Positions 2,307-47,271 of a stretch of 64,000 nt of DNA are shown in pieces. The translations under genes and the position numbers were made by a program. The DNA comes from Clostridia bacterium (GTDB taxonomy: Bacteria > Bacillota > Clostridia > RUG12999), in NCBI GenBank assembly GCA_045633565.1, contig JAZQYO010000024.1:1395-65394 (forward strand), given 5' to 3'. Position 1 is the stretch's first letter, and each line of letters starts with the position of its first letter. Under the pieces are notes generated by a model. It ran no database searches. It saw nothing but the letters and a program-made list of their open reading frames with translations, and was not told where the DNA came from.

Positions 2307-3785
2307 ATGAAACTACGATTACTAAACTTTCTAATAATTATAATAATCATCCTGAGCGTTTTTAATAGCGTTGTTCTCGCAGACGATATAAAGCTGTTTT
2401 TGGATGGAAACCCTATTTCGTGCGACGTTCCGCCGACTATTATCAACGACCGCACAATGGTACCGGTGCGTGCATTTTTGGAAGCACTTGATGCAAGAGT
2501 TTCCTGGAATGATGAAAAAAAACAGGTAACGGCACGGACCGATGATACAAAAATCATTCTTGTTATAGGTTCAAATGTAGCTTATGTAAATTCAGTTTTA
2601 AAAAGTCTTGACTCACCCCCTGTCATAGTGGACAGCAGAACCTTAGTTCCGGTAAGATTCATTTCCGAATCGCTGGGTTATGAGGTAAGATGGGTGGAAA
2701 AATCCCGTTCAGTTTTTATAAAAACGCCAAAGAATACTGAACCTGAAAAAGATGAGAATACCAATGCAGATACAACTGCTCCTGCAGAAACAAGTATTAC
2801 TTCTATGGTTTATTCGGTTTCCGGAAACAGTTTTGTGATGAAATTCACTTTTTCATCCCCACTTTCGGGTTACAGTCTTTATAATCTTGATAATCCTGTA
2901 CGAACTGTGCTTGAACTTGGCGGAGCATCATATTCCGGCAGTAAAACCATTACGGTTGAAAGTGGCGGTATTAAACAAATCCGCACTGCAAATCACGATA
3001 GTTATTATAAAGTTGTGGCAGACCTTGAAGAGGTTTTGGATAAAAAGTTTACGCTTGCCTCAAACAAGCTTTCAGCAACACTTACACTGACAGCTTCTTC
3101 GGCAATCGACTCGTCTGATATTGAGTCGGACCTGCCTTCCACAAATAAACCTTCGTATGAAGAGGAGAGTATTGAAATTATTTATGATAAATACTGGGAA
3201 GTGACTGACCAATCGATTGTAGTTTTAGATGCCGGCCACGGCGGAACAGATGTGGGCGCAATCGGCTACAATGAGGACGGAGAAAAGGTTTTTTACGAAA
3301 AGGACCTAAACCTTACTGTAACTCTTGAGGTTGCACGTATTTTAAAAGAGCATGGCGTAAATGTTCTGCTTACCCGTTCGGATGACAGTTCACTTGCATT
3401 AAGCCAGAGATATACTTTCTCCAACGCAAACAATGCTCTTTTATTTGTGAGTATACATCATAATTCACATGCAACTTCTACCCCTTCGGGAGCTCTTACT
3501 CTTTTCAGCGAGGACAAAGATGTAAAATACCCCAATCTTAAGTCCTCAGAAAGCATTGCAGAAACAATACAAAAACACCTCACAGAGGCAACCGGACTTT
3601 ATGACGGTGGCACACGTTCAGAGGACGAGCTTGCCGTGCTTCGTGGCACTGAGACTTCTGCTGTACTTATTGAGGTAGCTTTTGTAAGCAATTATGATGA
3701 CCAGGAATTTTTACTTGATGAAGAAAACCTTAACAAAGCAGCTGCAGGAATTGCAGCAGGCATACTTGAGGTTTTAGAGGATTAA
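2307..3785 (+). CDS. N-acetylmuramoyl-L-alanine amidase (Amidase_3) with N-terminal copper-amine-oxidase-like repeats and signal peptide
   Basis: Internal ATG at 2307 is preceded by GGAGAAAA and gives signal peptide MKLRLLNFLIIIIIILSVFNSVVLA. There are two TMVPVRAF/TLVPVRFI CuAO-N-like repeats. The C-terminal VLDAGHGGTDVGA...LFVSIHHNS motif is MurNAc-LAA. The track start at 2229 looks like a 5' over-extension. Confidence 0.8.
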   Translation: MKLRLLNFLIIIIIILSVFNSVVLADDIKLFLDGNPISCDVPPTIINDRTMVPVRAFLEALDARVSWNDEKKQVTARTDDTKIILVIGSNVAYVNSVLKSLDSPPVIVDSRTLVPVRFISESLGYEVRWVEKSRSVFIKTPKNTEPEKDENTNADTTAPAETSITSMVYSVSGNSFVMKFTFSSPLSGYSLYNLDNPVRTVLELGGASYSGSKTITVESGGIKQIRTANHDSYYKVVADLEEVLDKKFTLASNKLSATLTLTASSAIDSSDIESDLPSTNKPSYEEESIEIIYDKYWEVTDQSIVVLDAGHGGTDVGAIGYNEDGEKVFYEKDLNLTVTLEVARILKEHGVNVLLTRSDDSSLALSQRYTFSNANNALLFVSIHHNSHATSTPSGALTLFSEDKDVKYPNLKSSESIAETIQKHLTEATGLYDGGTRSEDELAVLRGTETSAVLIEVAFVSNYDDQEFLLDEENLNKAAAGIAAGILEVLED

Positions 3786-3787
3786 TT

Positions 3788-4270
3788 ATGTTCAACCTTG
3801 TTCTTGTCGAACCGGAAATCCCGCAAAACACCGGAAATATTGCACGTACCTGCAGTGTTACCGGTGCAAATCTTCATATTATTGAACCCATGGGATTTAA
3901 AATTGATGACAAAAAGTTAAAACGTGCCGGTCTTGATTACTGGCATCTGCTGAATATAACATACTATAAAAATCTGGACGATTTTTTTGAAAGAAACAGG
4001 GGCGGAAACTTTTATTTCTGCACCACAAAAGCGCCCTGTTGCTATACAGACCACGAGTATAAGGACGGAGATTTCTTCTTTTTCGGCAAAGAAACTGCCG
4101 GGCTTCCCGAAAGTCTTTTGTCAGCTAATCTTGACCGATGTATCCGCATTCCCATGCGGGAAGAAACCCGTTCACTCAATCTTTCAAACTCTGTTGCAAT
4201 CGTTTTGTACGAGGCTCTTCGCCAGACAGAGTTTGCCTCGCTTAATGAAACTTCTGCATATTTTGATTAG
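3788..4270 (+). CDS. trmL: tRNA (cytidine/uridine-2'-O)-methyltransferase TrmL (SpoU family)
   Basis: 160 aa. MFNLVLVEPEIPQNTGNIARTCSVTGANLHIIEP matches the SPOUT/TrmL N-terminus. Confidence 0.85.
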   Translation: MFNLVLVEPEIPQNTGNIARTCSVTGANLHIIEPMGFKIDDKKLKRAGLDYWHLLNITYYKNLDDFFERNRGGNFYFCTTKAPCCYTDHEYKDGDFFFFGKETAGLPESLLSANLDRCIRIPMREETRSLNLSNSVAIVLYEALRQTEFASLNETSAYFD

Positions 4271-4288: not shown

Positions 4289-6223
4289 ATGATAAAGAAT
4301 ATTAAATATCTTGAATATTCTCCCGATATGCCTCAGTCAAAAGAGTTGGCTGAGGCTGCCGGCATTTCTCCGCTTACCGCTGCAGTTGCATTAAACCGTG
4401 GGATAAAATCCAACCAGGAGCTTTCTTCATTTATTAAAAAATCCATCTACTGTCTCCACTCCCCGTATCTTATGAAGGATATGGACAGAGCAGTGGAGAT
4501 TGTTAAAAGTGCCCTCTCCGGTGGTAAAAAAATCACTGTTTACGGGGACTATGACGTAGATGGGATAACTTCTGTGTCGATACTTGTAAAATATCTGTCC
4601 GGACTTGGTGCAGATGTTTCCTTCTACATACCAAGCCGTGAGTCTGAAGGCTATGGATTAAACTGTGAAGCTGTTAAAAAAATCCATAGCATGGGCACAA
4701 ATCTTATAATAACTGTCGACACGGGTATTACTGCGTGTGACGAAGTGGCTCTCGCCAAAGAGCTGGGTATGGAAATTCTTGTAACCGACCATCATCAGTG
4801 CCCTGACATTTTACCCGACTGCGTGGTAATAAACCCGCACAGACCCGATTGTCCCTATCCGTTCAAATCACTTTCGGGCGTTGGCGTTGTGTTTAAACTG
4901 CTCTGTGCCCTTGAAAATGAGATTTCTCTGAAAATTCTTGATATGTTCGGCGATATTATTGCAACAGGCACAATTGCCGATGTGGTGGATTTGGTTGATG
5001 AAAACCGTATTATTGTTGATTTTGGACTTAAAAAACTAATGTCATCTCCAAACAAAGGGCTTGACGCTCTTATTGTGACATCCGGACTTCGCGGACGAAC
5101 GATTGACGCATCTACAATAGGTTTTTCAATCGCTCCACGCATCAACGCTGCCGGAAGAATAGGAAACCCCGAAAAAGCTGTTCAGCTTATATTATCCGAA
5201 AGCCTGTCCGAGTGTATGGAGCTTGCAAAATATCTTGACGAAGAAAACAAGGACCGTCAGCTCCAGGAAGCTGCTATTTTGCGTGATGCCGAGAAGATGG
5301 TTGAAAGTGATGAGTCTTTTAAAGACAAGTCCATTCTTGTTCTTTCAGGATATGGCTGGCATCATGGCATTATAGGTATAGTTGCTTCAAGGATTACTTC
5401 AAAATATTATAAACCGTGTATGCTCATAAGCTGTGACGACGGAATTGGCAAGGGTTCGGGGCGCAGTGTTCCCGGTTTTAACCTTTTTGAAGCAATGAAA
5501 AGCTGTGGCGATGTGTTTGCAAAATACGGCGGTCATGAGCTTGCTGCAGGATTTACTCTGCCACCCGATAATATTGGTGCACTTGATGCCGCACTTAATA
5601 AATATGCTGCAGAAAACATGTCCGATGATGCAAAAACCCCGTCTGTTACTGTAGAATGTGAACTTCCGGTAAAATATATCACCCCGGAAGATATAGATAA
5701 CCTCCGGCTTCTTGAGCCTTTCGGCGTTTCAAATCCCAAGCCATGCTTTATATGCAGTGGCGTCAGGATTTCGGGCAAACGCCTGATGGGTGATAAGGGG
5801 CAGCATATAAAACTAAGCCTCACCAAAGACGGTCAGACTTTTGAAGCGGTAGCTTTCCGCAGACCTGATATAAACGAAAAATTTGCTATAAATGATTATA
5901 TTACGGTTATCGGCACGCTGACAATCAACGAATGGAATAATATTTCCACACCCCAGCTTATAATATCCGATATACTTCCCCCTCCCGAGGAGTTTAAAGA
6001 TGCTCCTGACAGGGACAATTTAAAGGCAGTATACAAATATCTCAAGAGTATGGGCGATAAAGTTTTTGCACAGCTTGATGAAATTTCCGAAGGCGTTTTA
6101 AATGATTTCGGCATCTCCCTTAAAAACAGTGAAATTTTAGATTGTCTTAACTTTTTCAGCCGTACGGGAGTAGCCGGATACACTCTTAAATCTGATGAAA
6201 TTACCATAACTTTTATAAAATAA
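4289..6223 (+). CDS. recJ: single-stranded-DNA-specific exonuclease RecJ
   Basis: 644 aa. DHH motifs (ITVYGDYDVDGITS, DHH) and DHHA1 (GGHELAAG). Confidence 0.95.
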   Translation: MIKNIKYLEYSPDMPQSKELAEAAGISPLTAAVALNRGIKSNQELSSFIKKSIYCLHSPYLMKDMDRAVEIVKSALSGGKKITVYGDYDVDGITSVSILVKYLSGLGADVSFYIPSRESEGYGLNCEAVKKIHSMGTNLIITVDTGITACDEVALAKELGMEILVTDHHQCPDILPDCVVINPHRPDCPYPFKSLSGVGVVFKLLCALENEISLKILDMFGDIIATGTIADVVDLVDENRIIVDFGLKKLMSSPNKGLDALIVTSGLRGRTIDASTIGFSIAPRINAAGRIGNPEKAVQLILSESLSECMELAKYLDEENKDRQLQEAAILRDAEKMVESDESFKDKSILVLSGYGWHHGIIGIVASRITSKYYKPCMLISCDDGIGKGSGRSVPGFNLFEAMKSCGDVFAKYGGHELAAGFTLPPDNIGALDAALNKYAAENMSDDAKTPSVTVECELPVKYITPEDIDNLRLLEPFGVSNPKPCFICSGVRISGKRLMGDKGQHIKLSLTKDGQTFEAVAFRRPDINEKFAINDYITVIGTLTINEWNNISTPQLIISDILPPPEEFKDAPDRDNLKAVYKYLKSMGDKVFAQLDEISEGVLNDFGISLKNSEILDCLNFFSRTGVAGYTLKSDEITITFIK

Positions 6224-17505: not shown

Positions 17506-21054
<3,549 letters not shown>

Positions 21055-21068
21055 TTAAACCATATACA

Positions 21069-21100
21069 AAAACCACGGTGATTTTCACCGTGGTTTTTTA
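21069..21100 (+). terminator. rho-independent terminator after PFOR
   Basis: aaaaaccacggtg-atttt-caccgtggtttttta. Confidence 0.85.
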
Positions 21101-21113
21101 TTTGTGAAACAGT

Positions 21114-21167
21114 CAAGGTTCCGGAGCACCGGCCGTAATCTTTGATTGCGATAGCGGGTCGGGTTCT
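21114..21167 (-). repeat. 53–54 nt intergenic repeat element, copy A (inverted relative to copy B at 35705..35757)
   Basis: The reverse complement reads AGAACCCGACCC-N5-CGCAATCAAAGATT-N12-CCGGAACCTTG. All three blocks (12, 14 and 11 nt) are identical to copy B. Confidence 0.7.
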
Positions 21168-21261
21168 AATTTTATTAATCTGTAGGGGCGCCCGAACCGG
21201 GACGATGAAGGCATCGTCCCCTACAATAATTCTGCATCAATTTCTGTGCGTCCGTTTCAGT

Positions 21262-21315
21262 GTCGTAATTTGTCGACAAAAAATTGTTGCAAAATGTAAA
21301 TTTTGGTGTTATAAT
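21262..21315 (+). promoter_or_regulatory. conserved operator-like box plus sigma-A promoter, copy 2
   Basis: GTCGTAATTTGTCGACAAAAAATTG contains the perfect 12-bp palindrome TTTGTCGACAAA (21268–21279). TTGCAA (21287–21292), 17-nt spacer, TATAAT (21310–21315). Confidence 0.6.
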
Positions 21316-21318
21316 AAT

Positions 21319-21473
21319 CTTGCTAAACAAATTACATATTTCTTTTAGGCATGTGTTTTGCTTATGGCAAAAACGCAAGCTCTATTTACATGCCTTGAAG
21401 AAAGTGTCTGTAATTTGTTTAGCGACTTGGAGCTATGCGTTTTTCGTGCGTAGCCTTGCGCTACGCATTTTTT
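21319..21473 (+). promoter_or_regulatory. structured leader / candidate sRNA or attenuator, copy 2
   Basis: CUUGCUAAACAAAUUAC (21319–21335) pairs with GUAAUUUGUUUAGC (21410–21423), with compensatory changes relative to copy 1. Inner helix AGGCAUGU/ACAUGCCU. GGAGCUAUGCGUUUUU (21429–21444). Terminator UGCGUAGC-CUUGC-GCUACGCA-UUUUUUU (21446–21473). A 34-codon uORF (MRFSCVAL..., 21435–21539) overlaps the terminator and ends inside the RBS of the next ORF. Confidence 0.45.
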
Positions 21474-21544: not shown

Positions 21545-21667
21545 ATGGACAAATATCAGGAAATGTATTATGTTTTATTTAATGCAATAACAGAGGCAAC
21601 CAAAATACTGGAAGAAGCACAGAAAAAAGCGGAAGAAATATACATATCGACAAATGAGGAAAACTAA
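21545..21667 (+). CDS. small hypothetical helical protein, 40 aa (paralog of 16554..16643)
   Basis: AAGGAG RBS. Hand translation gives MDKYQEMYYVLFNAITEATKILEEAQKKAEEIYISTNEEN. Followed by a terminator hairpin. Confidence 0.45.
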   Translation: MDKYQEMYYVLFNAITEATKILEEAQKKAEEIYISTNEEN

Positions 21668-33932: not shown

Positions 33933-35705
33933 ATGACTAACAACAAAAAAGTCATCACATGGCTTGAAGAAATGAAAGCCCTGACAAAACCTGACAGTGT
34001 CGTTTGGATTGACGGCTCAGAAGAGCAGCTGGAAGCACTCCGTGCTGAATCCGTTGCAACAGGCGAAATGATTAAGCTTAACCAGGAAAAACTCCCCGGC
34101 TGCTACTTCCACAGAACAGCGGTTAACGACGTTGCCCGTGTTGAAGACAGAACTTTCATCTGCACAACAAAAAAAGAAGATGCAGGCCCCAATAACAACT
34201 GGATGGCACCTGCTGAAATGTACGACAAATTAAAGAAACTTTATGACGGCTCAATGAAGGGCAGAACAATGTATGTTATTCCCTATTCAATGGGTCCTGT
34301 CGGCTCACCTTTCTCAAAAATTGGTATTGAGCTTACAGACAGCATCTACGTTGTTTTAAACATGGCTATCATGACAAGAATCGGTACTCCTGTTATGGAA
34401 GCTCTTGGCGAAGATGGTGATTTCGTTAAATGTCTCCACTCCAAAAAAGACGTTAATCCCGACGAAAGATATATCGTTCACTTCCCCGAAGATAACGCAA
34501 TCTGGTCCATCAACTCCGCTTACGGCGGTAACGTTCTTTTAGGCAAAAAATGTTTCGCTCTCAGAATTGCTTCCTATCTTGGTAAACAGGAAGGCTGGAT
34601 GGCAGAACACATGCTCATCTTAGGACTTGAAAATCCTCAGGGCGAAGTTAAATACATCGCAGCTGCTTTCCCGAGTGCCTGCGGTAAAACAAACCTCGCT
34701 ATGCTTATCCCGCCTGAAATCCTCAAAGGTTACAAGGTTTGGACAGTTGGTGACGATATTGCATGGCTGAGAATTAACCCCAAAGACGGCAGACTTTATG
34801 CTATCAACCCCGAAGCAGGCTTCTTTGGCGTTGCTCCCGGTACAAATGCAAAAACCAACTTCAATGCCCTTGAATCAACAAAGAAAAACACAATTTTCAC
34901 AAACGTTGCTATCAACAATGATGATATGACAGTTTGGTGGGAGGGTCTTGATAAGAATCCTCCGGAAAATGCAACCGAGTGGACAGGTAAACAGGTTAAC
35001 GGTAAAGAATTTGTGGCTGAAGGTGGCAAACTTGCTAACCCCAACTCCAGATTTACTGCTCCTGCTATCAACTGCCCATGCATTTCTCCCGAATTTGAAA
35101 ATCCTCAGGGCGTGCCCATTTCTGCAATCGTATTCGGCGGCAGACGTGCTAAAACAGCTCCGCTGGTATACCAGGCAAGAGACTGGGAACACGGCGTTTT
35201 CGTTGGTGCTACAATGGCATCTGAAACAACAGCTGCTGCTGCAGGTGCAGTAGGCGTTGTAAGACGTGACCCTATGGCTATGAAACCCTTCGTTGGTTAT
35301 AACATGGCTGACTATTTTGGTCACTGGTTTGAAATGGGCAAGAAAATGGATGCAGATAAAGCTCCTAAAATCTTCCACGTTAACTGGTTCAGACGTGACG
35401 ATGACGACAACTTCCTCTGGCCCGGTTTTGGCGACAATATGCGTGTTCTCAACTGGATTATTGACAGATGTGAAGGCAAAGTTGACGCAAAAGAAACAGC
35501 TATCGGCTATGTTCCCAACAAGGAAGACTTAAACCTTGAAGGTCTTGACATTTCTGACGAAGTTATCGACGAACTTTTAAGCGTTAAGAAAGAATACTGG
35601 GTTGACGATATCGCTAACCAGAAAGAATTCTTCGCTCAGTTTGGCGACAGACTCCCGAAAGAAATCACTTCTCAGCTGGAAAAACTTGAAAACAGCATGA
35701 AGTAA
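33933..35705 (+). CDS. pck: phosphoenolpyruvate carboxykinase (GTP)
   Basis: 590 aa. Length and motifs of GTP-type PEPCK (kinase-1a CGKTN, FGGRR, NWFRRD). Confidence 0.92.
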   Translation: MTNNKKVITWLEEMKALTKPDSVVWIDGSEEQLEALRAESVATGEMIKLNQEKLPGCYFHRTAVNDVARVEDRTFICTTKKEDAGPNNNWMAPAEMYDKLKKLYDGSMKGRTMYVIPYSMGPVGSPFSKIGIELTDSIYVVLNMAIMTRIGTPVMEALGEDGDFVKCLHSKKDVNPDERYIVHFPEDNAIWSINSAYGGNVLLGKKCFALRIASYLGKQEGWMAEHMLILGLENPQGEVKYIAAAFPSACGKTNLAMLIPPEILKGYKVWTVGDDIAWLRINPKDGRLYAINPEAGFFGVAPGTNAKTNFNALESTKKNTIFTNVAINNDDMTVWWEGLDKNPPENATEWTGKQVNGKEFVAEGGKLANPNSRFTAPAINCPCISPEFENPQGVPISAIVFGGRRAKTAPLVYQARDWEHGVFVGATMASETTAAAAGAVGVVRRDPMAMKPFVGYNMADYFGHWFEMGKKMDADKAPKIFHVNWFRRDDDDNFLWPGFGDNMRVLNWIIDRCEGKVDAKETAIGYVPNKEDLNLEGLDISDEVIDELLSVKKEYWVDDIANQKEFFAQFGDRLPKEITSQLEKLENSMK

Positions 35706-35757
35706 GAACCCGACCCATTAACGCAATCAAAGATTGCTATGGGACCCCGGAACCTTG
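35705..35757 (+). repeat. 53-nt intergenic repeat element, copy B (starts on the last base of the pck stop codon)
   Basis: AGAACCCGACCC-ATTAA-CGCAATCAAAGATT-GCTATGGGACC-CCGGAACCTTG. The internal GCAATC-AAA-GATTGC hairpin is conserved in copy A as a G-U variant. Confidence 0.7.
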
Positions 35758-35785
35758 CTTGCTGACGCAAGAAGAAAAAAATTTA

Positions 35786-35826
35786 AAAGGATGAAGATGA
35801 CACTGTCAGCTTCATCCTTTTTCTTC
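35786..35826 (+). terminator. rho-independent terminator after pck and repeat B
   Basis: aaaaggatgaag-atgacactgtcagc-ttcatcctttttcttc. Confidence 0.8.
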
Positions 35827-35904
35827 TATTGACTTGCTTTAATTTTTGATATATAATTGAAATCGGAGTAATGTATACTTTATATATAAACGGAGGGACA
35901 AAAA

Positions 35905-46702: not shown

Positions 46703-46884
46703 GTGAAATATCTCACTCCGTTCGATATGAAATAATTTACTCTGTAAATTGTGAAATAGAAACCTTAAGGTTTCTGTGAAATAAAATAAATCCTTTATCA
46801 CACGCCGCAAGGCGTATTTCATATTGCGAAGCAATATTTCATACACGAAGTGTATTTCACAAATCCTGAAAGGATTTATTTCAT
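46703..46884. repeat. symmetric array of eight RTGAAATA boxes (4 direct and 4 inverted) interleaved with short GNRA/GAA-loop hairpins
   Basis: GTGAAATA or ATGAAATA at 46703, 46727, 46751 and 46776 (24-24-25 nt phasing). TATTTCAT or TATTTCAC at about 46815, 46835, 46853 and 46877. Spacers form mini-hairpins: ATTTAC-TCT-GTAAAT, GAAACC-TTAA-GGTTTC, CGCC-GCAA-GGCG, TTGC-GAA-GCAA, CAC-GAA-GTG, AAATCC-TGAAA-GGATTT. Confidence 0.6.
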
Positions 46885-46900
46885 TGAAAAAACGACTTGT

Positions 46901-47078: not shown

Positions 47079-47117
47079 CAAAAGATGTGCTTTCTTCTTT
47101 GGCTGCCGGACTAGGAT
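47079..47117. repeat. 39-bp direct repeat copy 2 (genuine tRNA-Gln 3' end plus its terminator half)
   Basis: See copy 1. Includes the terminator AAGCACATC-TTTT-GATGTGCTT for the minus-strand tRNA operon. Confidence 0.75.
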
Positions 47118-47173
47118 TCGAACCCAGACAAACAGAGTCAGAGTCTGTCGTGCTACCCTTACACAATCCGGCA
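47100..47173 (-). tRNA. tRNA-Gln (anticodon CUG)
   Basis: Reverse complement TGCCGGATTGTGTAAGGGTAGCACGACAGACTCTGACTCTGTTTGTCTGGGTTCGAATCCTAGTCCGGCAGCCA. Acceptor U1-A72, anticodon loop CUCUGAC, T-loop GGTTCGAATCC, encoded CCA. Confidence 0.9.
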
Positions 47174-47179
47174 ATATAT

Positions 47180-47271
47180 TGGAGGAGAGGAAGGGATTCG
47201 AACCCTCGATACGCTATTAACGTATACAGCATTTCCAATGCTGCGCCTTCAACCAACTCAACCACCTCTCC
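47180..47271 (-). tRNA. tRNA-Ser (anticodon GGA)
   Basis: Reverse complement GGAGAGGTGGTTGAGTTGGTTGAAGGCGCAGCATTGGAAATGCTGTATACGTTAATAGCGTATCGAGGGTTCGAATCCCTTCCTCTCCTCCA. 7-bp acceptor stem, long variable arm, anticodon loop UUGGAAA. Confidence 0.9.

Follow-up and report, generated by a model that had tools for sequence, protein, structure and literature searches.

Small hairpin-forming repeats with direct GAACC tags at gene ends in gut Clostridia: a probable REP/MITE-like mobile family

Background

Three short sequence blocks occur twice in the 64-kb stretch of clostridial DNA analysed here (the window), once behind the gene for PFOR and once, in the opposite orientation, behind the gene for PEPCK. 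What kind of element places the same blocks next to two central-carbon genes, and does it connect their expression? A sequence-only reading of the window had proposed an element of about 53 nt that, if transcribed in both 3' UTRs, would make the two RNAs complementary over the conserved blocks. As a fallback, it had suggested a small REP/MITE-like intergenic repeat family. Here, we describe the anatomy of the two copies, the family to which they belong, its distribution and genomic position, and the explanations that can be offered for it.

Two copies of one element in the window

The PFOR open reading frame (17518-21054, plus strand) and the PEPCK open reading frame (33933-35705, plus strand), whose Pfam content was confirmed via homologues, each have one site matching the gapped pattern AGAACCCGACCC-N-CGCAATCAAAGATT-N-CCGGAACCTTG behind them. 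These sites, at 21114-21167 (minus strand) and 35705-35757 (plus strand), are the only exact matches in the window, and none was found in 100 shuffles of the window, the chance expectation being none; the three exact common blocks are therefore real. With a covariance model of 84 family members, the PFOR-side copy (copy A) scored 62 bits and the PEPCK-side copy (copy B) 68 bits. The next-best site in the 64 kb scored 11.5 bits, and the scan revealed no third copy in the window.

The length of about 53 nt originally given to the element proved too short. Copy B extends over approximately 35703-35773 and copy A over approximately 21098-21169, and in both a further small hairpin and an (A)ATAA at the end lie beyond the 53-nt stretch. 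The linkers between the blocks, which had been regarded as unrelated, are actually the two halves of a covarying stem, designated P1 (CCCAT/ATGGG in copy B and a degenerate CCCGC/GCCGG in copy A).

Copy B is intact (35706..35773, with the TAA from about 35703; plus strand; 68 bits, E = 6e-17). The TAA at 35703..35705 (plus strand) is both the stop codon of PEPCK, at the end of ORF 33933-35705, and the 5' junction of the copy, where AGTAA is directly followed by GAACC. On the plus strand, the copy then consists of the first tag GAACCCGA (35706-13), P1 (35714-18 paired with 35739-43), which encloses the hairpin P1a, GCAATC-AAA-GATTGC (35723-37), the second tag CCCCGGAACCTTG (35745-57) and the P2 hairpin CTTGC-TGAC-GCAAG (35758-71), after which comes a terminal AA. 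Its RNA folds with -20.6 kcal/mol (z = -4.2 versus shuffled sequences). The intrinsic terminator of PEPCK, GGATGAAG...CTTCATCC then TTTTT (35789..35822, plus strand), lies outside the repeat, and its sequence shows no kinship to the terminators of PEPCK orthologues; copy B and the terminator together (35700-35830) fold with -44.1 kcal/mol (z = -7.3).

Copy A (21098..21169, minus strand; 62 bits; the covariance model marks six of its stem positions as non-pairs) is decayed. Its junction TAA is changed to TTA (21169-21167), the GATTGC arm, which is near-invariant elsewhere in the family, is changed to GATTAC, P1 has a degenerate 3' arm, P2 is broken (ACTGTTTCACAAATAA), and the copy folds no better than shuffled sequence (z = -0.1). 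The hairpin GUAAUC-UUU-GAUUGC, noticed previously on the plus strand, is present, and its G-U wobble results from the G>A change in the near-invariant arm, one of several decay mutations. An intrinsic terminator of PFOR is predicted at 21068..21098 (plus strand; terminator scan, 14 pairs then a T-run), and its A-tract, in the minus-strand reading, runs into the 3' AATAAAAAA of copy A. Since copy A is downstream of this predicted terminator, it is not part of the PFOR 3' UTR. Copy B is an intact passenger in the PEPCK 3' UTR; copy A is dead and not included in the PFOR transcript.

Several other features were observed in the window. Copy A is adjoined by a GTAG-tagged palindrome, GTAGGGGCGCCCGAACCGGGACGATGAAGGCATCGTCCCCTAC (21182-21224, plus strand), a separate REP-like repeat that occurs once in the window; in the orthologous PFOR locus L122 (approximately 5083-5140), a related TGTAGGGGGACGGATGCC... 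repeat is located behind the PFOR terminator. A good promoter-like site, TTGCAA-17-TATAAT with TG (21287-21315, plus strand), and a terminator-like hairpin (21446-21468) could together delimit a short transcript or leader, about 150 nt in length, downstream of which is a 40-aa ORF (21545-21667, plus strand). Finally, a Gut-1 RNA (Rfam RF01706, 72 bits versus a threshold of 50; 46811-46886, minus strand) is located just downstream of two minus-strand tRNA genes (47103-47173 and 47183-47271).

Conserved tags and covarying hairpins

The full unit is about 67-72 nt long and has the layout TAA-GAACC(C/U)(G/C)A-(hairpin P1/P1a)-(G/A)GAACCTTG-(hairpin P2)-(A)TAA, with the first junction between TAA and GAACC; sizes in the family range from about 39 to 75 nt. 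Aligned copies give a unit of about 67 nt, aATAA followed by GAACCCGA-CCCGAT-AA-CGCAATC-AAA-GATTGCG-GTCGGG-TACCCCGGAACC-TTGTTGT-ATTC-ACAATAA, in which the 3' arm of P2 terminates in (A)ATAA. The arms of P1 change in concert (CCCGAT/GTCGGG, CCCGCC/GGCGGG and CCCAT/ATGGG). In 84 distinct copies, a sample biased by its own search pattern, stem P1 was 94% paired, with compensatory changes at two positions.

Because of this bias, metagenomes were scanned with the flanks alone fixed (TAAGRACCTSAC...GAGAACCTTG). This tags-only search yielded 95 further stretches, a divergent subfamily in which the inner sequence is nearly free yet always forms a hairpin (e.g., CGATGC-TTT-GCATCG, CGGAAGC-AAA-GCTTCCG and GCGGCAAC-AA-GTTGCCGC). 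In an alignment of 75 divergent copies, which was fitted to the model structure and whose covariation figures should be read accordingly, all 17 of the 17 pairs of P1, P1a and P2 were changed on both sides, two-sided changes occupied 311 cells versus 78 in shuffles, and 90.5% of cells were paired versus 63.9% after shuffling and 36-48% when partner columns were slid.

Sequence conservation is limited to the two direct GAACC tags flanking the main hairpin, i.e., TAAGAACC on one side and (G/A)GAACCTTG on the other, and to the (A)ATAA junctions. Minimal units of 38-39 nt retain just tags, hairpin and junctions, e.g., TAAGAACCTCAC-TTTTC-AGTGAGAACCTTG-GCCTACGGC. At the other extreme, an extra insert of about 57 nt in the second hairpin lengthens the array period in two loci (L146, 468-887, period 122; L151, 5162-5326, period 111).

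Distribution of the family

A scan of genome collections with the pattern ACCCGACCC-N(3-9)-GCAATCAAAGATT identified the family in at least 115 genomic stretches, nearly all of them from gut or rumen Clostridia MAGs. Hosts among the matches listed include Acutalibacteraceae, Oscillospiraceae, Ruminococcus, Christensenellales-like organisms and Ornithomonoglobus, and one genome (JAZUMO) contains at least 14 copies. The complete genome CP091729.1 also has the family. Many copies are at contig ends (among the matches listed). Conservation of the tags extends from ruminant-gut sequences to ribosomal-protein operons of further metagenomes, one of which (L138) has a groundwater-like contig name.

The family occurs in one cultured genome, that of Acetoanaerobium noterae, at three places. 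The A. noterae "plasmid" pTPELB2 looks like a chromosome, as it is 2.63 Mb long and has just four annotated features. In locus L125 (NZ_CP154629.1, 2424148-2432221), an intact copy at the TAA of ORF 3137-4006 is followed by a degenerate second copy. Among 2.9 million viral contigs there was no match, nor was there a phage record, and the sole match in the plasmid collection was this 2.63-Mb, chromosome-sized record filed as a plasmid. Thus, no vector for horizontal spread was seen in these collections.

Neither the window copies nor 12 further loci matched Rfam 15 at gathering thresholds, and permissive scans of two copies gave only sub-threshold matches, in the neighbouring terminator hairpins. 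The motif was not found in the literature searched by topic and by motif strings. The family is apparently undescribed and unannotated.

Location at stop codons and terminators

Copies of the element occupy a characteristic position. All copies listed are intergenic or at stop codons, and AATAA directly precedes GAACC in 95 of the 126 copies listed. In 46 of 107 copies listed, the TAA of the element terminates an open frame of 80 codons or more, compared with 4 and 3 for the other frames. The genes that end in this way (encoding HU, FtsZ, ProRS, thioredoxin, DHFR, RF2, Pol I, RmlC, RuvC and a 2-hydroxyacid dehydrogenase) are functionally unrelated housekeeping genes. In PEPCK orthologues that lack the element, the protein has the same last residue (..K, then stop) and an unchanged C-terminus, which places the insertion exactly 3' of the native stop codon.

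In the main family (copies listed), the upstream neighbour is co-oriented with the element in 87 cases versus 17. On the downstream side, convergent genes account for 74 cases versus 28, often at a distance of just 30-50 nt. A strong downstream fold (45-nt segment, -10 kcal/mol or lower) begins within about 10 nt in 78 of 99 copies versus 11-18 of 99 in controls, and the usual order is element, hairpin, convergent gene. The rule that the 3' end of the element points toward a terminator hairpin fits both window copies, as copy B is placed between the PEPCK stop codon and its terminator, and copy A, in the opposite orientation, beyond the PFOR terminator. The inverted arrangement of the two copies, which had been taken as a regulatory sign, instead reflects this family rule, since the hairpin may be approached from either side. 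Between co-oriented genes, sense and antisense copies occur at 18:11 in the main family (copies listed) and at 20:11 in the divergent set, and some copies are located between divergent genes; the element is thus no obligate sense RNA.

Minimal units of 38-39 nt are found in ribosomal-protein operons, in sense orientation and in tandem groups of two or three (L141, 6538-6662; L138, 4338-4432; L174; L214). They occupy the L5-S14 and L16-L29 intergenic spacers, and the first TAA is the stop codon of the upstream gene.

A different arrangement was observed at seven loci (L011, 1581-1775; L131; L167; L180; L188; L202; L205), where the element is on the opposite strand between the AAGGAG Shine-Dalgarno sequence and the ATG of AbrB/SpoVT-like ORFs (MKATGIVRRI...) that are short or truncated (site GGTTCTTATATATGAAAGC). 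Stem changes between these loci are compensatory, and a GAGG provided by the complement of the element is positioned 9 nt upstream of the ATG. The ORF in L011 is interrupted after 11 codons by a second copy in inverted orientation.

Evidence for mobility

Copies resemble each other more closely within genomes (mean identity 95.5%) than between genomes (86.7%; copies listed), and the 14 copies in the JAZUMO MAG have a mean identity of 98.7%. In addition, head-to-tail arrays of 2-5 units combine differing stems or subfamilies (L012, L132, L213). The dissimilarity of units within an array indicates that arrays grow by insertion beside an existing copy and not by simple duplication.

Comparison of orthologous sites also points to gain and loss. 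The PEPCK site is filled in the window and in L117 (94% amino acid identity) and empty in L118, L120 and L121. Two loci have partial sites: in L116 (97% amino acid identity), exactly GAACC...GGAACC is missing and a P2-like hairpin is kept, and in L119 (91%), TAAGAACCC is fused to a different P2-type end, implying an independent insertion. The PFOR site is empty in L122, which has a PFOR orthologue with 95% identity. In L123, an unrelated intact copy abuts the TAA of a convergent ABC gene.

On this evidence, we consider it probable, at roughly 0.6, that both window sites are copies of a small, non-autonomous, hairpin-forming, REP/MITE-like family of mobile repeats that is spread in gut Clostridia and other bacteria. 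The fallback of the sequence-only reading essentially matches the data and was right in spirit. That reading had named dozens of scattered copies with target-site duplications, a plain MITE, as refuting its leading idea; the scattered copies are present in dozens, whereas classical duplications are not.

How might such a repeat move? Single-strand mobilisation by an HUH-type enzyme has been proposed for REPs and is known for IS200/IS605 elements. Given the size of 39-75 nt and the conserved folded shape, mobilisation of this type in trans would be the most economical mechanism. The substrate may be a folded single strand, copied or moved by a trans-acting enzyme that would recognise the GAACC tags on either side of the hairpin, much as HUH/Y1 nucleases do (e.g., RAYT or the TnpA of IS200/IS605). 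Insertion would occur after AATAA in an A-rich tract before a hairpin. The AATAA at the element's own end would recreate the target, so that arrays could grow. Once inserted, the element would usually be co-transcribed within a 3' UTR, where its stable hairpin, 8-11 nt past the stop codon, is probably merely a passive structure, as in REPs, although it could shield the 3' end of the mRNA or affect ribosomes at the stop codon.

The sequences surrounding the element were also searched for a partner. ORF clustering in the 115 + 95 loci revealed no recurrent transposase or nuclease ORF near approximately 210 copies; only generic ABC ATPase and AraC families were recovered, plus one recurring locus with MazF-like and large serine-recombinase genes (L126, L128, L134 (named human gut), L140, L144, L173, L197). 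The latter locus itself looks like a mobile element and contains one repeat copy followed by an inverted partial tag, GGCGTGAGGTTCTCAT. A search for an autonomous version, with split ends flanking a gene, returned only chance matches in coding regions. Inspection of the consensus revealed no terminal inverted repeats, as the end GAACCCGACC... is not the inverted counterpart of ...TTCACAATAA. No variable target-site duplication, which would have pointed to SINE-like reverse transcription or a DDE transposase, was found at the junctions; the constant AATAA alone is present at both, and longer matches derive from tandem copies. Filled and empty PEPCK sites are compatible both with no duplication and with a duplicated AATAA.

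Alternative explanations

We regard it as unlikely that the element is a host-beneficial, cis-acting RNA motif of 3' UTRs and intercistronic spacers, whose multiple copies reflect recruitment of a useful module and not selfish spread. According to this explanation, a conserved internal loop (AAC/AAC) would arise from the two GAACC tags within a variable helix. An RNA-binding protein or an RNase would read this loop, and the motif would control the stability of mRNA 3' ends, intercistronic processing or stop-codon events. The combination of conserved unpaired nucleotides and covarying helices is indeed a structured-RNA signature, but no Rfam 15 family matches it. The co-orientation of 87 of 104 upstream neighbours (main family, copies listed) suggests that most copies are transcribed in sense, and the minimal units lie in sense directly after the L5 and L16 stop codons in ribosomal-protein operons. 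On the other hand, about one-third of the copies between co-oriented genes are antisense or, as copy A, beyond a terminator, and the target genes have no common function.

The folding properties of the two strands give an ambiguous strand assignment. In the variable helices, when read on the TAAGAACC strand, G-T wobbles outnumber A-C oppositions by 44 to 19 (both sets), which favours this strand as RNA, whereas the tags and the overall energy favour the complement. The complementary strand folds better in 125 of 130 distinct copies, by 3.3-3.6 kcal/mol, because GGUU/GGUU wobbles between the tags are possible on that strand only.

Patterns of conservation likewise have two sides. The PEPCK copies in the window and in L117 are identical at 66 of 68 positions (97%), whereas identity is 66.7% at fourfold sites, taken as neutral, and the adjacent terminators show no relation; the tags do not vary between very different samples, and the AbrB/SpoVT-adjacent copy is kept in all seven loci with compensatory stem changes. 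Judged from these sequences, the 97% identity of the PEPCK copies and the conservation of the tags across samples resemble the outcome of purifying selection on a functional RNA more than they do neutral junk, and if the repeat is mobile, recurrent insertion or gene conversion must be invoked to account for them. Nevertheless, copies within a genome are near-identical even in their loops, which argues for recent copying and not for independent maintenance, and the element is lost in close relatives while the gene is unaltered.

Still less probable, in our view, is that the REP/MITE-like family consists specifically of miniature IS200/IS605 derivatives (PATEs), moved as single-stranded DNA by cut-and-paste through a Y1 TnpA, with the TTGTT arm of P2 guiding recognition of the AATAA target and the right end. 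Such an origin would agree with the fixed junction pentamer, the lack of variable duplication and the presence of subterminal hairpins, despite the dissimilarity of the two hairpins. Either AATAA is a possible partner for TTGTT, and the helix formed by CUUGUU with the 5' flank is paired to 95.6%. Coordinated changes of flank (ATTAA), guide (TTGAT) and right end (ATTAA) were observed in L009, and AATAG occupies both junctions in L094, but the flank-guide rule is broken in L008, L013 and L083. Self-targeting would also account for the head-to-tail arrays. IS200/IS605 elements insert strand-specifically at replication forks. The orientation of the present repeats is unbiased relative to local GC skew, a proxy calculated on 5-8-kb stretches: skew on the element strand is positive for 45 copies and negative for 51, and the ratio is 26 to 26 at |skew| >0.05. 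Moreover, neither a Y1 transposase gene nor a full-length IS with such ends was found near the approximately 210 copies.

The original proposal, that the PFOR-side and PEPCK-side copies act as 3' UTRs which pair via the conserved blocks and co-regulate the two central-carbon genes, started from reverse-complementary copies beside two genes on the same coding strand, and it is hardly tenable given that copy A is degenerate and beyond the PFOR terminator, that hundreds of family copies adjoin unrelated genes, and that close relatives carry either copy alone or neither.

Implications

The element explains the recurrent conserved blocks at gene 3' ends in gut Clostridia MAGs, and it also adds to assembly breaks, with many copies at contig ends. 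In hundreds of genes of little-studied gut bacteria, its frequent position on the stop codon and before the terminator could have consequences for mRNA stability or termination. The covariance model can be used for annotating the family.

More tentatively, the GAACC-hairpin-GAACC-TTG-hairpin-TAA unit may represent an undescribed and widespread class of structured elements, either a new substrate for single-strand transposition or copying, directed to AATAA/stop-codon sites by TTGTT pairing, or a protein-read cis-RNA module at stop-terminator and intercistronic junctions. If so, the invariance of the tags would reflect a conserved partner, and a protein that recognises them, if found, would define a new mobilisation system or a new RNA-protein module.

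Comparison with known elements

A number of known element types were considered and rejected. Type III toxin-antitoxin RNA repeats do not fit, as the present copies are mostly single, arrays follow unrelated genes (L5/S14) and there is no common downstream ORF. The integron attC cores RYYYAAC/GTTRRRY were seen on neither consensus strand on inspection, and the host genes are core housekeeping genes. A CRISPR array, suggested by a 67-nt spacing of matches, was dismissed because copies abut without spacers, and a group IIC intron remnant gave no fit on inspection. An 8-mer match of the complement to the 3' region of 16S rRNA is expected by chance.

Small non-coding stem-loop insertion sequences have been described in several genera, including EFAR in Enterococcus, the pneumococcal RUP and BOX, Correia/NEMIS in Neisseria and SMAG in Stenotrophomonas. 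Like the present family, they are located near ORF stops and terminators, are co-transcribed with the upstream gene and are strain-polymorphic. These elements are 100-170 bp long and each is restricted to a genus, and most have terminal inverted repeats and short duplications (TA etc.) that tie them to a known IS family. Judged by these descriptions, the present family is set apart by its size of 39-75 nt, the lack of terminal inverted repeats and its occurrence across orders. The lack of terminal inverted repeats and of variable target-site duplication also means that it is not a classical MITE.

PATEs share with the family the absence of inverted terminal repeats, the subterminal hairpins, a fixed 4-5-nt left junction without variable duplication, and possible guide-like pairing to the cleavage sites. 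The present family differs in having no replication-strand bias (by the GC-skew proxy), in its dissimilar hairpins and in that no cognate TnpA/TnpB element was found.

The similarity to REP, BIME and REPIN sequences is extensive. These are short imperfect palindromes with many extragenic copies, covarying stems and a conserved short single-stranded tag, and the present element, a covariation-backed hairpin with at least 14 copies in one genome, is likewise a short extragenic multi-copy palindrome. REPs are also co-transcribed in 3' UTRs and are presumed to move as single strands via a trans-acting HUH enzyme (RAYT, TnpA-REP). REPs also resemble the present family in that they are often just a few bases away from stop codons and may themselves supply one, and GTAG REP termini often provide the stop codon of flanking ORFs (PMC3733652). 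However, the tag of the present family is GAACC and not GTAG/CGTC, the tetranucleotide being absent from the palindrome end, so it is not a classical REP, and this tag is present twice, as a direct repeat around the hairpin. The family further differs in its second hairpin, in the AATAA at both junctions, in arrays that are head-to-tail (direct) and not inverted doublets, in that no RAYT gene was found in the 115 + 95 loci, and in tags conserved over far more distant organisms than those of a typical REP family. As it lacks the REP tag, the hallmarks of a MITE and the replication-strand preference of IS200/IS605, the element belongs to the small palindromic repeat kind under no named family, and its anatomy of two direct GAACC tags, a freely covarying hairpin and AATAA at both junctions distinguishes it from REPs, MITEs and IS200/IS605 miniatures.
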